From Candidatus Poribacteria bacterium (GTDB lineage: Bacteria; Poribacteria; WGA-4E; WGA-3G), in contig CBDBFU010000015.1 of the NCBI GenBank assembly GCA_965205025.1, positions 224,001-288,000 on the forward strand: a DNA stretch of 64,000 nt. Direction: 5' to 3'. Of the stretch, positions 46,328-52,275 are shown one piece after another; position 1 is the stretch's first letter, and each line of letters starts with the position of its first letter. The position numbers and the translations under genes were made by a program. The notes beneath the pieces are model-generated. The model was not told the DNA's origin, searched no databases, and saw nothing but the letters and a program-made list of their open reading frames with translations.

Positions 46328-47464
46328 TCAGTTGGCTATGAATTGTAGTGCATCCCTAATTTCAGAGATAACCTCAGGATCATTTTCGTACTTTAATTGA
46401 TTCTCTAATGCTATTGTAGCGTTTTTCCCTCCAATTTGTCCTAATGCCCATGCAGCATGTCCGCGTATCATCGGTTCATCATTCATTAATGCTTTTTTCA
46501 ATGCGGGGACAGCAGTGGGTGAACCCCAGTTGCCAACAGCTACGATTACATTTCGTAGGAACCCCTTCCACTTTGTGCGTTTGATTGGACTTCCTTTGTA
46601 TTTATTATTAAAATCAGATTGTGTTATCTCCATTAGTGGTAGTAATTCTGGTGTAAGATTATCTTTTCGGGGATGGAATGCTGGTTCTGATGTTGGGACA
46701 GCCTTACTATTCCATGGACAGACTTCCTGACAGATATCACATCCAAATATTAGGTTTCCTATTTGTGGACGTAGTTCCATTGGTATACTGTCTTTCAATT
46801 CTATAGTTAGATAGGAGATACACAATCGAGAGTCAAGTATATTCGGTTCAAGAATAGCATCTGTAGGACATTCCTCAATACATTTTGTACAGGTACCACA
46901 ACTACCCCGAATAGGTTGGTTATCGTATTCTAATTCGAGACTGATTAGTATTTCAGCAAGAAAATACCAAGAACCCGTTTGCCAATTTATCAGGTTTGTA
47001 TTCTTACCAATCCATCCGAGTCCCGATTTCTCTGCATATTCTCTTTCAAGTATAGGTCCTGAATCTACAAAAACGCGACTTTTCAATTCTGATTCAGTCA
47101 TAGTTTTAATGTAATCAACAAGTTGTTGAAGTCTATCCCGTATGACGTCATGGTAATCCTCACCCCATGCATAACGTGAGATCTGTCCGCGGCTGGGATC
47201 CTCAGATAAATCTTTGGGAGGGTCAACTGTGTAATAGTTCATGCCGAGACTTATCACCGACTTTGTCTCTTTAAGAAGTGTTCTGGGATCTTCTTTGAGT
47301 GGTAAGTGTCTTTCAAGATATCCCATTTTACCTGCATACCCGTTTTCAATCCATTTTCTATACAGTTCTATTGTTTCACTCTCTTTGACAGGTGAAATGC
47401 CAACGAGTTCAAATCCGAGTTCTTTTGAACGGGTATGTATTTTCTGCGTTAATGTGCTCTTCAT
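46328..47464 (-). CDS. queG: Epoxyqueuosine reductase with C-terminal HEAT repeats
   Basis: ISRYAWGEDYH, GWIGKN, CGTCTKCIEECP, CISYLTIE, GCDICQEVCPWN. Confidence 0.95.
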   Translation of the reverse strand: MKSTLTQKIHTRSKELGFELVGISPVKESETIELYRKWIENGYAGKMGYLERHLPLKEDPRTLLKETKSVISLGMNYYTVDPPKDLSEDPSRGQISRYAWGEDYHDVIRDRLQQLVDYIKTMTESELKSRVFVDSGPILEREYAEKSGLGWIGKNTNLINWQTGSWYFLAEILISLELEYDNQPIRGSCGTCTKCIEECPTDAILEPNILDSRLCISYLTIELKDSIPMELRPQIGNLIFGCDICQEVCPWNSKAVPTSEPAFHPRKDNLTPELLPLMEITQSDFNNKYKGSPIKRTKWKGFLRNVIVAVGNWGSPTAVPALKKALMNDEPMIRGHAAWALGQIGGKNATIALENQLKYENDPEVISEIRDALQFIAN

Positions 47465-47614: not shown

Positions 47615-48679
47615 TTATTTAGTGCCACGTGGATAAGAACCGAGTATTTTTACATCATGGCATAGTTCCCAAAGTTGATCAAGGGCATCGCGTACATGCT
47701 TATCGTCAGTATGTCCATCTATATCAGCGAAAAATATGTAATCCCAAGGCTTTGAACGTGATGGTAGTGATTCAATATAACTAAGATTTAGTTGATGTGT
47801 TTCTAATACACCTAATATCTGATATAGTGCCCCGACTTTGTCTTTAATAGCAAAGAAAATAGAAGTGCAGTCATGACCACTCTTACCAACTATTTGAGAA
47901 CCAATGATAAGGAACCGTGTTGTATTATTTGAGTCATCCATGATTGAATCTGCTATTATAGGCACATCATACATCTCACTTGCCAGTTGACTTGCGATAG
48001 CAGCAGTGTTTGGTTCATCGGCAGCACGTTTTGCTGCATCTGATGTGCTAACGACTTCAATTTGTTCTACTGACTTCAGATTTCTGTTTAACCACATTCT
48101 ACATTGTGAGAATGGATGTCTGTGCGAGTATATTCGTTGTATCTCATTTAGTGGTACCTTAGAGATGAGATGATGTCTAATAGATAGGTATATTTCAGCA
48201 CAGATATTTAATTGTGTATGTAAGAAACGTTCTAATACATCACGAACAGTTCCATAAACAGAGTTTTCGATTGCCACGACACCAAAGTCTGCGCGTCCTG
48301 TTTCAACTTCGGTAAAGATATCAATTTGTGGCGTGATAGGAATCATTTCAACATTTGGACCAAAAAAAGCTAAACATGCAGTGTGTCCAAAACTTCCTTC
48401 TGGACCAAGGAATGCCACTCGATTTTTAGTTTGTGTTGTCCGTGAAGTATAGAAAATCTCGTTCCATATCTTGTCAATGGCAGTGTGAGGATATATACCC
48501 TGATTCCTTTTTTTCAGACGATTCAGAATTTCATTTTCCCGATGTGGCACATAGATTTCTTCCCCCGAATCAGCCTTTAGATTGCCCACCCTTTTTGATA
48601 TATCCAGACGTTGATGTAGCAGATCTAAGATCTCGTTATCTATGTTATTGATTTGGTCGCGTAAGTCTTTTAATGCCAA
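47615..48679 (-). CDS. pheA: Chorismate mutase/prephenate dehydratase (P-protein)
   Basis: LRDQINNID CM domain, FLGPEGSF, IENS, NTTRF, ACT domain IESLPS. Confidence 0.95.
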   Translation of the reverse strand: MALKDLRDQINNIDNEILDLLHQRLDISKRVGNLKADSGEEIYVPHRENEILNRLKKRNQGIYPHTAIDKIWNEIFYTSRTTQTKNRVAFLGPEGSFGHTACLAFFGPNVEMIPITPQIDIFTEVETGRADFGVVAIENSVYGTVRDVLERFLHTQLNICAEIYLSIRHHLISKVPLNEIQRIYSHRHPFSQCRMWLNRNLKSVEQIEVVSTSDAAKRAADEPNTAAIASQLASEMYDVPIIADSIMDDSNNTTRFLIIGSQIVGKSGHDCTSIFFAIKDKVGALYQILGVLETHQLNLSYIESLPSRSKPWDYIFFADIDGHTDDKHVRDALDQLWELCHDVKILGSYPRGTK

Positions 48680-48729
48680 GGAAATGGTCTCCTAACCAAC
48701 CCTTATTAATAAAATATAGTTGATTATGA

Positions 48730-48763
48730 GTAATCTCTGTTAGGTAAAACCAACAGAGATTAC
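48730..48763 (-). terminator. Hairpin after the DUF5069-like gene
   Basis: GTAATCTCTGTT-N10-AACAGAGATTAC. Confidence 0.65.
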
Positions 48764-48782
48764 ACTATTAATAGTTGAATGA

Positions 48783-49028
48783 TTACTCACTCAATTTCTT
48801 CATGGCAGCAATCATTTCATCGTCTGAGGGATTGTTTTTCACCATATCAACAAATTCCTCAGCAGTAATGTTGTGTTCCTCCAGGAACATTTTGTCCTGC
48901 GGTCAGGGGTATATATATTCCCCAATAATACCTTGTAATTTAGCATTGGCTTTATCTGATATTCTTGCTAACCAAGGAATACCTCCGATGATCATATCTC
49001 TATGGCGTGGTTTCCAATCAAGAGACAT
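48783..49028 (-). CDS. DUF5069-like small protein with in-frame TGA, probable selenoprotein (81 aa)
   Basis: RBS AAAGGAGGTGA; MSLDWKPRHRDMIIGGIPWLARISDKANAKLQGIIGEYIYP-TGA(48903-48905)-PQDKMFLEEHNITAEEF...KKLSE-TAA; downstream SECIS-like hairpin. Confidence 0.8.
48862..48902 (-). promoter_or_regulatory. Candidate bacterial SECIS element
   Basis: 13 nt after UGA: UGUUCC-UGGA-GGAACA apical stem-loop with G in the loop; lower GCAG/CUGC pairing. Confidence 0.6.
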
Positions 49029-49062
49029 ATTCTTCACCTCCTTTATTGATTTATCGTAATAT

Positions 49063-52000
49063 TCAATTATTATTGGCTTTTTCTTGAAGTTGTTTTAAGA
49101 TAATTTCTAACTTCCCGAGTAATCGACCATACTCAGTCCAGTTTCCATTTCGTAATGCATTTTGCGCGCTATTGTAGTTGTCATTCGCTTGTTGAATGAG
49201 CGTACTTATAGAGACGTCTTCATTTGAAAGGTTAGAGCTTTCAACGGTTTCGTCAGTTGAACTAACCAACGTAGTCTCTTGTATTTCTGTTCCATCTGCG
49301 AACATCTTAATGAGAGCTTCGTTTAGAGTTTCTCCCCAGACGACCTTGTTCTCATATCCAATAACAACCCGTCGTAACTCAGGTATGGCAGTTTCTTCAT
49401 CTTCAGACTGGATATAAATAGGTTCAACATAGAGTAGTGAATTGTTCATCGGAAGTATCAGTAGATTACCGCGTAAAACTCGTGATCCTTCTGTATTCCA
49501 CAGACTTATCTGTTGTGAAATCTCAGGTTCTTGACTAATGAAGTTTTCAACCTGCATTGGACCGGCAACTTGTTTGCCTTTTGGGAAACGGTATACTAAT
49601 AATTGTCCATATTGTGGTAAATCACAACGTGCAGCCAGCCATGCTGTAAGATTGGGTTTATTTAACGGAGTATAGGGTAACATCAGCATAAACTCAGCTC
49701 TATCCTGACCGGGTAACTTTATTACCACATAATACGGTTCAACTGGTTGTCCATTTGATGGTGCTTTTCTAACAGGTTGTTGCTGTTGAGCAAAGGGTGA
49801 TCTCTGTTGTTGAGGTGCAACTTGTTGTACTTGTGCATCTGTATTATCATAGAGTTCCCATCCAATTTCCCATCTATCTTCACCTGCATAAAAGGTATCA
49901 GGATTCTTCATGTGATAATCTTGATATACCCTGGATTGGATAAGAAACATAGATGTGGGATAACGAATATGATTCTTAAGTTCTTCTGGCATTTCGGCAA
50001 AGGGTTTGAATAGATCTGGAAATATCTTTCTGTAACACTCAGCAATAGGGTCTTTCTCTCTTTCCATTATATAGAAATTTACAGTACCATCATAAGCATC
50101 AACAAGAACTTTAACAGAATTCCTTATGTAATTCCCCCATGGTTCACCATCCTGTTGTGTGCCTGTAACTTGTCGTCTTCTATCTCTAAGAAATTCATTC
50201 ATAGAGACAGAATATGGGTATCTATGTGTGATAGTATAAGCATCTATCATCCATACGATTCTTCCATTGTGTAGGACTATATAAGGGTCTCCATCGTATC
50301 TTAAGAAAGGAGCGATTTTCTGAATCCGTCTTTTTATATTTCGGTCATATAGGATACGACTTGTAGATGAAATTTCCCCTGGCAATACAAACTTTATCTC
50401 TTTATCAAACTTCAACATATACACCAGTTTTCGCCAGAATGAGTTCAGTTCAACACCGCCATCACCTTGATATGCATATTCAGCATATTGTTGACCTTCA
50501 ATAGGATAATCAAATTCTAATGGTTGAGTTCTGTCAGGATGAATAATCACATAACGGTCGGTTCTTTCACCATAGTAGATACGCGGTCCTGGAGAATCAT
50601 TGAATCTATACGGCCATTGTTCATTGTATTGAATAGGTGGCAATTCTTGAATGTACATGTTTGGTTTGCCTTCTATGATTTCATTTACAGGACTTACAAC
50701 AGCCCCATACCCGTGAGTGTAAGTATAGGTTTGTTTGTACCAGTCATTTCTGATTTCTACTGGTAAATCGTTAATGTTTAACTCACGTGCTGATAGCATT
50801 ACCTGTCTGACTTCATTGTTAATTATATACCTATCAATATCAACATCAAAGAAATCGTATTGTGAACGCAATTCCTGTAACTGCCTAAATGTCCTACGTA
50901 AAGGACGCCAATCCCATAATCGTATGCTATTGAATACTGGAGCGTTTTCTTCACTTGTAATATCTTCGTAGTTAAGGACTTCTGTCAGAGGATATTCTTC
51001 TTCTACAACCTTATTCTCTGATAGGCCGTATGCCTCTAAGGTTGATTTTATGTTGTAATTAATGTAATCTGCTTCTAATACTTGCTTGAGTGGATCGACC
51101 CTTAAAACTTGTACCATCTGCGGATAGAATTGCCCTAATATACCGGCAATAATAAACACAATTAGACTTCCAAAAGCAAATTTATTGCTTCGTAAGAAGA
51201 TACTAACGATAAAAATCACAGCACATATTGCTGTGAGAGCAATCATGATATAGAGAATTGGAAGTCGCGCCTTGATTGCAGCATAGCCACCACCACCACG
51301 GACGATTTCGTTTGATGTATATAATAAATCATACATTACAAAACGGTAGTTCCAAGCACGGAATAGAAGTGTTAACCCAACGAGTGTAAAAATGTGTGCT
51401 TTGACTTTGAAAGGGGGTCGAAAGCGGAGTTGATTCGTATCTCCCGTAATTAATCCGTGGAAAAAGTAGATGATTATTGAGAAAACAGTAACAAGGAAGA
51501 AGATACCAAACAGAGTACCACAGATATAACGCCACATAGGCATTTCAAACACATAATAGGAGACATCTTTTTTGAAGATCGGGTCGCGTGCAAGAGAGGT
51601 AAAATATGCTCTCTGACCGTCATTAACTTGGATGGATGTGTTTAACTTTAAACCGATTGGCAGGTTAATTGTCTTATTATTTTGCGTTATAGGTTCAGTG
51701 ATTACCTGATTAACTGTCGCACTAACCGGTTCATTTTGGTCAACATACACCTTTATTTCATCACCAATTTGGATTTTTTTGGCTTGTAATTCTAATGTTG
51801 AAACCGAAATTGTATCTGAATCAATTCCATCATTTACAGTAATAGGTGTTGCTGACTGAAAATCCAATTCTCCTGCATGTGTATACCGTAGATATATTTC
51901 CCACCGATCCGTTGCTGAATACCCCATTAAGATACTGAATAGGACAGCCATAATGGTGAGTCCGCCATAAATCATTTTCCGTGTGTTTGTTTCTCCACCT

Positions 52001-52275
52001 GTAAATTCTGTACCTCCTAAGAATGCGGGACTGAGTTGTGCAGGAGTGTATTTATAGACAATAAACAGATTAATTAGGAGTATGACCAGGTAGGTTAAAC
52101 CAACAATAATCCCAACGAGTATTTTATTGTATAGAATTTCGGTATAAACAGAGAGATAATTTAGCATTTTGAACCATAGTATATCGGGATATATATTAAT
52201 CCAAGCTGTGATTATACCCCCCAAAACCGCTATGATTCCAACTGTGAGAATAAGACGTTTTACTCGTGGTTCCAT
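49063..52275 (-). CDS. UPF0182 (COG1615) family membrane protein with insertions
   Basis: DPIF..DVSYYVF, IRLWD, YTHGYG, PRIYYGE, DGDPY, NYIRNSVK.. VDAYDG, GNLL..P, LYVEPIY. Confidence 0.93.
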   Translation of the reverse strand: MEPRVKRLILTVGIIAVLGGIITAWINIYPDILWFKMLNYLSVYTEILYNKILVGIIVGLTYLVILLINLFIVYKYTPAQLSPAFLGGTEFTGGETNTRKMIYGGLTIMAVLFSILMGYSATDRWEIYLRYTHAGELDFQSATPITVNDGIDSDTISVSTLELQAKKIQIGDEIKVYVDQNEPVSATVNQVITEPITQNNKTINLPIGLKLNTSIQVNDGQRAYFTSLARDPIFKKDVSYYVFEMPMWRYICGTLFGIFFLVTVFSIIIYFFHGLITGDTNQLRFRPPFKVKAHIFTLVGLTLLFRAWNYRFVMYDLLYTSNEIVRGGGGYAAIKARLPILYIMIALTAICAVIFIVSIFLRSNKFAFGSLIVFIIAGILGQFYPQMVQVLRVDPLKQVLEADYINYNIKSTLEAYGLSENKVVEEEYPLTEVLNYEDITSEENAPVFNSIRLWDWRPLRRTFRQLQELRSQYDFFDVDIDRYIINNEVRQVMLSARELNINDLPVEIRNDWYKQTYTYTHGYGAVVSPVNEIIEGKPNMYIQELPPIQYNEQWPYRFNDSPGPRIYYGERTDRYVIIHPDRTQPLEFDYPIEGQQYAEYAYQGDGGVELNSFWRKLVYMLKFDKEIKFVLPGEISSTSRILYDRNIKRRIQKIAPFLRYDGDPYIVLHNGRIVWMIDAYTITHRYPYSVSMNEFLRDRRRQVTGTQQDGEPWGNYIRNSVKVLVDAYDGTVNFYIMEREKDPIAECYRKIFPDLFKPFAEMPEELKNHIRYPTSMFLIQSRVYQDYHMKNPDTFYAGEDRWEIGWELYDNTDAQVQQVAPQQQRSPFAQQQQPVRKAPSNGQPVEPYYVVIKLPGQDRAEFMLMLPYTPLNKPNLTAWLAARCDLPQYGQLLVYRFPKGKQVAGPMQVENFISQEPEISQQISLWNTEGSRVLRGNLLILPMNNSLLYVEPIYIQSEDEETAIPELRRVVIGYENKVVWGETLNEALIKMFADGTEIQETTLVSSTDETVESSNLSNEDVSISTLIQQANDNYNSAQNALRNGNWTEYGRLLGKLEIILKQLQEKANNN

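Follow-up and report, generated by a model that had tools for sequence, protein, structure and literature searches.

A predicted DUF5069 selenoprotein gene with a small hairpin downstream of its in-frame UGA in Poribacteria

We analyzed a 64,000-nucleotide stretch of the genome of a Candidatus Poribacteria bacterium, a symbiont of sponges (contig CBDBFU010000015.1, positions 224,001 to 288,000 of the forward strand; this whole stretch is called the window below) and found in it an unannotated gene that very probably encodes a selenoprotein of the DUF5069 family (Pfam PF16798), in which selenocysteine (Sec) would be inserted at an in-frame UGA, codon 42. Conservation of the TGA among relatives, coding constraint on its flanks, the evolution of a hairpin just past it, and the Sec machinery of the genome together make Sec insertion very likely, and we put the probability of this reading, which is built on sequence comparison, at about 0.9. 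The gene looks like the representative of a new selenoprotein family that uses the standard bacterial mechanism.

All coordinates given without a contig label are positions in the window, and all features of the selenoprotein gene lie on the minus strand. The coding sequence (48783..49028) consists of 81 codons and a TAA stop codon and was translated with TGA as Sec (U), which makes Sec residue 42. Its ATG (49028-49026) is located 34 nucleotides (nt) past the stop codon of a UPF0182 gene and is separated by 8 nt from the GGAGG of the ribosome-binding site AAAGGAGGTGA (49034..49044), which is plain in the sequence itself; most orthologs, too, give EVK.M (GGAGGT) when the stretch before the start is translated in frame. 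From the ATG, 41 sense codons lead to the TGA (48903..48905), and 39 further sense codons lead to the TAA (48785-48783), so that the read-through protein carries the motif GEYIYP-U-PQDKMFLEEH. A hairpin resembling a selenocysteine insertion sequence (SECIS), UGUUCC-UGGA-GGAACA (48874..48889), starts 13 nt past the UGA and occupies codons 47-52 (M-F-L-E-E-H). Under translation table 11, the locus is reduced to pieces of 44 and 35 amino acids, and its longest open reading frame (ORF) is an antisense frame of 94 amino acids (48775-49059, plus strand). Because table 11 leaves only these fragments together with the longer antisense ORF, the gene is missed by ORF calling. An earlier note on this DNA, which had been written from the letters and an ORF list, described the ribosome-binding site, the spacing from the UPF0182 stop codon, the two open stretches around the TGA, the stem-loop 13 nt behind it, and the antisense shadow ORF called in place of the gene, and we found every one of these elements where the note had placed it.

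The read-through product matched the Pfam model of DUF5069 with 53.6 bits (cut-off 27; E 3.4e-14). The match spans model positions 4-75 of 133, and the protein is thus a short form in which the C-terminal half of the domain is missing. The only solved relative, PDB entry 3omd, which bears the title 'unknown function protein from Leptospirillum rubarum', was aligned with its chain A at E 1.7e-11, and a Cys residue of 3omd (GEYTYN-C-PLDQ) is located opposite the UGA. When 1.84 billion cluster representatives were searched exhaustively with a profile, 581 proteins were recovered at E ≤ 0.001. We took a census of the UGA column over 166 proteins, equivalent to 187 DUF5069 domains, in which the column was occupied by Cys in 110 domains, by Ser in 31 (mostly multi-repeat paralogs), by Trp in 13, and by other residues in 19; the gene call ended exactly at the column in another 13, and one domain was a fragment stopping short of it. 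The P, R, K, A, C, and D columns of the DUF5069 motif do not vary among 25 diverse Cys-type proteins, and the Poribacteria protein retains P7, R8, R22, D25, K26, A29, G36, Y38, Y40, U42, and D45 at invariant or near-invariant columns. The motif L.R..DKA.A...G..GEY.Y.CP.D, which the earlier note had quoted, thus holds, with its R, K, A, C, and D unchanged in all 25 proteins. The placement of the UGA on the conserved Cys of the family, which the same note had proposed, also agrees with the data, Cys being found at this column in homologs, in 3omd, and in eight orthologs from Poribacteria.

We examined 176 species genomes of Poribacteria and found orthologs (E ≤ 1e-15; identity 51-99%) in 168, of which 160 have exactly one in-frame TGA (148 in the main listing, seven of genome family f4, three of f6, f7, and f9, and two others). 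The other eight orthologs, all from family f8, have a Cys codon and no stop codon at the position (TGC in seven genomes, TGT in one). The eight genomes in which no ortholog was detected were two 81%-complete genomes of genus g13 and six genomes of families f5, f10, and f11. As for the best 80 loci from named genomes, almost all came from metagenome-assembled genomes of Poribacteria, and a few were labelled only 'uncultured bacterium'. Cys/TGA pairing with conservation on both sides, which the earlier note had named as a check, therefore appears as 160 TGA orthologs against eight TGC/TGT orthologs, with a coding pattern that continues past the TGA. We also encountered more divergent TGA forms in the sequence libraries. 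P0021, which has W at the column, is 52% identical to its nearest Poribacteria ortholog, and seven calls that stop at the column (P0043, P0046, P0051, P0063, P0079, P0086, and P0095) show 63-77% identity over 38-39 aligned residues. Since the Poribacteria genomes without an ortholog yielded neither a P0021-like form nor a similarly divergent TGA form, Sec forms of DUF5069 may exist in lineages outside Poribacteria.

The sequence past the UGA evolves as a coding sequence. We compared 55 distinct coding sequences, which remained from 60 parsed orthologs after removal of four with an extra codon and one containing an N. Diversity at codon positions 1/2/3 was 0.141/0.074/0.453 upstream of the UGA and 0.122/0.090/0.461 downstream of it, and, judged by substitutions, purifying selection thus acts in the same way before and after the UGA. 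Conservation behind the TGA, on which the earlier note had made its proposal depend, is thus visible over all 55 sequences as a coding-type substitution pattern. Codon 47 encodes Met in only 40 of the 55 sequences, and hence there is no conserved restart. In this genome (38.5% GC), 240 of the 1385 frames with 400 or more codons end in TGA, which rules out genetic code 4 (TGA = Trp), and several of the orthologs themselves terminate with TGA.

The hairpin is strongly constrained at synonymous sites. Codon 48 is TTC in 55 of 55 sequences, codon 49 is CTG in 54, and codons 50 and 51 are GAG and GAA in 55 each; the lone change, from CTG to TTG, preserves a G-U pair. Elsewhere in the gene, codon entropy was 1.6-2.0 bits for other Leu residues and 0.5-1.0 for other Phe and Glu residues, and third-position diversity was about 0.46, compared with 0.052 over codons 47-52. 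Across 52 distinct segments of 54 nt, the stem of 7 base pairs (bp) was 94.2% paired, whereas controls slid along the sequence reached at most 67.6%. Its 5-bp core, GUUCC/GGAAC, is invariant, and the outer pairs of the stem covary, three pairs having undergone double changes that preserve pairing (A-U/G-C, U-A/A-U, and G-C/A-U). None of 500 shuffles reached the covariation score, a control that overstates the significance because the sequences are related. GUUCCUGGAGGAAC is kept in all TGA forms that were read, including those of the deep families f6, f7, and f9. In the Cys forms, by contrast, the complementarity is lost in eight of eight, and F-L-E-E is replaced by FLEK, FLER, FLQR, WLQK, WLRK, or FLKQ. 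Seven of the eight f8 genomes gave a high SelA score, and the eighth, which is 61% complete, gave a weak match only; the Cys state is therefore not a by-product of loss of the Sec pathway.

We compared the hairpin with the consensus model of bacterial SECIS (bSECIS) elements given in a 2026 review, in which the legend of Fig. 2 specifies a loop of 3-9 nt, an upper stem of 4-16 bp, and a G in the first two loop positions, and in which the further limits are a UGA-to-loop spacing of 16-37 nt and a minimum free energy of ≤ -7.5 kcal/mol (PMC13188914). The geometry of the hairpin is within this model: the loop is the 4-nt UGGA with G at position 2, the stem has 6 bp here and between 5 and 7 bp in relatives, and the distance from the UGA to the loop is 19 nt (13 nt plus the 6-nt arm). 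We therefore treat the hairpin as a minimal bSECIS of limited biophysical strength but with good evolutionary backing from three independent lines, namely the frozen synonymous sites, the covariation, and the loss of the hairpin in the Cys forms.

The genome (5.66 Mb, 95.5% complete) contains selA, selB, selC, and selD, the set that the earlier note had listed as needed for Sec recoding. SelA was matched at E 1.1e-155. SelB is encoded by an intact frame of 651 amino acids on contig C20 with a wing domain (46468-46605), and a tRNA-Sec with anticodon tca lies at G000:C20 46317-46410, about 60 nt from the selB match and on the same strand; selC and selB form a compact unit. SelD, a selenoprotein itself, was matched at E 8.2e-109 (G000:C4:104148-105074, minus strand) and has an in-frame TGA of its own, in KCAG-U-ASK.

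Apart from the genome under study, several deep-branching Poribacteria (G061-G063, G067, and G074; f10, f11, f6, and f8) have two strong SelA matches per genome, which in G061 have E values of 4e-153 and 2e-87. Such paired matches suggest a SelA paralog or a related enzyme.

Other sequencing of the same region was available as contigs, not reads, of four runs, which we compared with positions 48600-49200 at a likeness of at least 85%. One run was identical over the stretch and may be the source sample. Contigs of relatives that span the TGA came from two runs of two other metagenome studies and from one metatranscriptome, the records of which cover 48808-49161 and 48882-49043. Among the best-supported differences listed, none fell at 48903-48905 or at 48874-48889, and flanking synonymous sites varied. 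The opinion of the earlier note that a miscalled TGY was less likely is thus in line with independent contigs, which have no listed change at 48903-48905.

Several observations weigh against Sec insertion or against parts of our reading of it. The hairpin alone has a free energy of -5.8 kcal/mol, its 7-bp form -6.9, and its core -4.2, none of which reaches the limit of -7.5 in the bSECIS model; a 46-nt context reaches -12.1 kcal/mol (z -3.0), but it depends on an outer helix whose pairing in relatives is just 60.6%, and we rejected this helix as a conserved element on that account. An Rfam search of 48500-49200 returned only chance-level microRNA and small nucleolar RNA matches and no SECIS family. 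The F-L-E-E peptide could account for part of the conservation of the hairpin, although a constraint on the peptide would not explain the frozen synonymous sites. In the contig comparison, 45 weaker differences are outside the listing, contigs drop rare variants, and the RNA contigs may include DNA carry-over. Ser occupies the UGA column in about a sixth of the family domains, so that the residue at this column is not indispensable to the fold, and the functional part of our reading is an argument by analogy only. Selenium incorporation at the UGA is itself a prediction.

The small size of the hairpin and its position under the bSECIS energy cut-off would suit a different decoding of UGA-42, outside the SelB/Sec pathway, by near-cognate Trp or Cys insertion with the hairpin as a pause or stimulator, and gene callers using code 4 do give a full-length product containing W. 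We consider such decoding improbable, because the genome keeps a complete Sec pathway, the Sec-type SelD included, the UGA falls exactly on the conserved Cys of the family as in a classic Sec/Cys pair, and the loop G and the spacing are as expected of a bSECIS; moreover, the lineage without the TGA has Cys there and not Trp, and TGA is common as a stop codon in the genome. Termination at the UGA, which would yield a peptide of 41 residues and leave the later 39 codons untranslated or decaying as a pseudogene or split gene, corresponds to what NCBI and ENA gene calls depict when they end at GEYIYP (P0016-P0019), often with spurious N-terminal extensions. It is more improbable still, since third-position bias is equally strong downstream and upstream of the UGA, amino acids past the UGA remain conserved even among proteins of 51% identity, and no restart codon is conserved. 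Cys-form orthologs and homologs run continuously through the site, and a null allele would not persist in 160 species genomes. A sequencing or assembly error that turned TGY into TGA might be brought up in view of a remark in the earlier note on apparent assembly errors elsewhere in the window, but the TGA is found in 160 independently assembled species genomes, and neither the contigs of the two other metagenome studies nor the metatranscriptome has a listed change at the site; we regard such an error as hardly credible.

If UGA-42 is read as Sec, as we favor, SelB with Sec-tRNA(Sec) would bind the small hairpin 13 nt downstream of it, Sec would be inserted, and the ribosome would go on to finish the 81-residue product. 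An AlphaFold2 model of this product, built from an 8-sequence alignment, has four helices and a mean predicted local distance difference test score of 85.4, with residue 42 directly before helix 2 (43-51). In a Foldseek comparison, the model was superimposed on 3omd_A with TMq 0.82 and a root-mean-square deviation of 1.7 Å over 73 columns (E 1.7e-3), and the search against the PDB gave nothing besides 3omd, every other row having E > 4. According to the model, the product would be a four-helix protein equivalent to the DUF5069 domain without its C-terminal half, and Sec would be located just before helix 2 within the motif G-E-Y-x-Y-P-(C/U)-P-x-D.

By analogy, the selenol, which lies where helix 2 begins and is surrounded by the invariant R, D, K, and D, may form a redox or nucleophilic center; the protein would then be a small cytosolic protein with the selenol as its reactive center, and Cys-type DUF5069 proteins would use the same site with sulfur. 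We infer such a center because most uncharacterized selenoproteins are likely redox proteins, as stated in a section of the review cited above (PMC13188914). There is no second Cys in the Poribacteria protein, and a resolving thiol, if any, must therefore be supplied by a partner or by some small molecule. The redox-active or metal-binding site that the earlier note had suggested is likewise putative. When a protein atlas was searched with the natural Cys homolog P0014, only DUF5069 clusters were returned, all with scores below 0.9; they came from Verrucomicrobiota, Melainabacteria, and Vulcanimicrobiota and gave no functional lead. A wider proposition can be put together, in which DUF5069 is an enzyme or carrier family with a single conserved Cys as its catalytic redox or nucleophilic center, its near-universal upgrade to Sec is a core reason for keeping the Sec machinery in sponge-associated Poribacteria, the hairpin with its 5-bp core and UGGA loop is among the smallest functional bacterial SECIS elements, and the class-wide linkage to pheA might connect the protein functionally to aromatic amino-acid metabolism. 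We offer this combination as speculation and doubt that it is correct as a whole.

The gene is flanked upstream by the UPF0182 membrane-protein gene (49063..52275, minus strand; 1070 amino acids; Pfam PF03699, E 1.2e-237) and downstream by pheA (47615..48679, minus strand), which encodes a chorismate mutase / prephenate dehydratase / ACT protein (Pfam CM_2, PDT, and ACT). The UPF0182 gene adjoins the selenoprotein gene in just 24 of 42 loci examined, all in families f1-f3, and on this count we rejected UPF0182 as a functional partner. In 35 of the 42 loci, including all eight Cys-form loci of f8, pheA is directly downstream on the same strand; it was not found within the examined flank in two loci of genus g1 and four of genus g6, and one locus ends 95 nt past the gene. 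Of 80 metagenome loci with full-length Cys-type DUF5069 genes, we dropped the 22 shortest and analyzed the neighborhoods in the other 58, which gave 107 flanking ORFs. Neither prephenate dehydratase nor chorismate mutase was among the 25 commonest neighbor families in these 58 loci; pheA linkage was therefore dismissed as a family-wide feature, and the adjacency is treated as lineage synteny. DUF3386 accounted for 30 of the 107 flanking ORFs and typically ended 0-10 nt before the start of the DUF5069 gene on the same strand; the others included eight NAD(P)H-binding proteins (NAD_binding_10), four cupins, and three HbpS-like proteins. Judging from this gene order, DUF3386 and DUF5069 likely constitute a two-gene module of two uncharacterized families; a full-text search returned no literature on DUF3386.

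Between the stop codon of the selenoprotein gene and pheA there is a perfect 14-bp hairpin (48730..48763, minus strand; -20.3 kcal/mol, z -4.9). The earlier note had called it a terminator. The hairpin exists, but the label is doubtful: it has no U-tract, a terminator scan made no call there, and the stretch is swapped for 83-90 other letters in the contigs of relatives and is thus not conserved. It may serve as a terminator or be an element of a different kind. The sole terminator-like site that the scan reports in the region (48873-48890, plus strand) is the SECIS-like hairpin on the opposite strand, followed by TTTTG, which is probably a coincidence.

The same genome also encodes tandem repeats of full-length DUF5069 domains, three at G000:C15:179918-181168 (minus strand), about 43 kb before the start of the window, and two at G000:C5:4214-4999 (plus strand). 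In Poribacteria, the triple-repeat frames have approximately 430-460 amino acids and the double-repeat frames about 290. In comparable multi-repeat proteins of the sequence library, Ser mostly takes the place of the Cys (YGSGLD).

Public gene calls for the selenoprotein gene are systematically wrong. Calls of 81-101 amino acids on short ENA metagenome contigs (P0002-P0013) have Trp at the column and are otherwise near-identical to the window protein, for which reason we take their Trp to be a TGA decoded with code 4. Calls that end at the TGA (P0016-P0019, P0028, and the divergent set described above), some of them from NCBI, have false upstream starts. An NCBIfam search with the protein found no family at E ≤ 1, and standard annotation is consequently without a selenoprotein model for it. 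No paper on DUF5069 or PF16798 was found in a full-text literature search, although supplements and the database BSepDB may still list the family. Table 1 of the 2026 review lists, under their domain IDs, prokaryotic selenoprotein families that are known or predicted, and the main text of that review mentions neither DUF5069 nor PF16798 nor a UPxD-type motif (PMC13188914). What is new here is the family, its Sec state in nearly all orthologs of a symbiont phylum, and the clear-cut correlation between the Sec/Cys state and the hairpin.

Where Sec occurs, it is nearly always a catalytic residue with a redox or nucleophilic role, which makes the conserved Cys of DUF5069 an obvious target for mutagenesis and activity screens. 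The predicted selenoprotein thus provides a first functional handle on DUF5069 and, by analogy, points to a reactive center in the family, and it corrects a systematic annotation error in which the UGA is taken as a stop codon or as Trp. It also offers a natural experiment, with UGA and the hairpin in 160 species and UGC or UGU without the hairpin in eight; this contrast shows a minimal SECIS that is embedded in the coding sequence and constrains it (F-L-E-E). The finding fits the enrichment of SelA and SelB reported for sponge-symbiont bins and may help to explain it (PMC5649159). Poribacteria are also named among the phyla with Sec-type group 4 hydrogenases (PMC13582414).

Compared with known systems, the hairpin shares with canonical bSECIS elements of the E. 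coli fdhF type its location in the coding region directly past the UGA, and its small apical loop with G at position 2 followed by another G and its spacing of 19 nt fit the consensus model. It differs from them in being very small, with an invariant core of 5 bp, a maximum of 7 bp, a tetraloop, and no conserved lower stem. Among the families in Table 1 of the review, DUF1858, DUF523, DUF3179, and DUF166 are likewise predicted single-Sec proteins of unknown function, and their prediction follows the same logic, in which TGA is paired with Cys between conserved flanks and is followed by a bSECIS-like hairpin in a host that decodes Sec (PMC13188914). DUF5069, which stands outside the main text of that review, is distinguished from these predicted families by the motif YP-U-P-x-D, in which there is no CxxU or UxxC redox pair. 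Cys-type DUF5069 proteins are full-length, whereas the predicted Poribacteria selenoprotein has only 81 amino acids, Sec included, and covers model positions 4-75 of 133; DUF3386 often directly precedes the full-length Cys-type genes in metagenomes, at 30 of 58 loci, and was not found in this Poribacteria genome. The Cys-type proteins (PF16798; PDB 3omd) nevertheless have the same domain and the same invariant motif residues, and their Cys corresponds to the predicted Sec of the Poribacteria protein.

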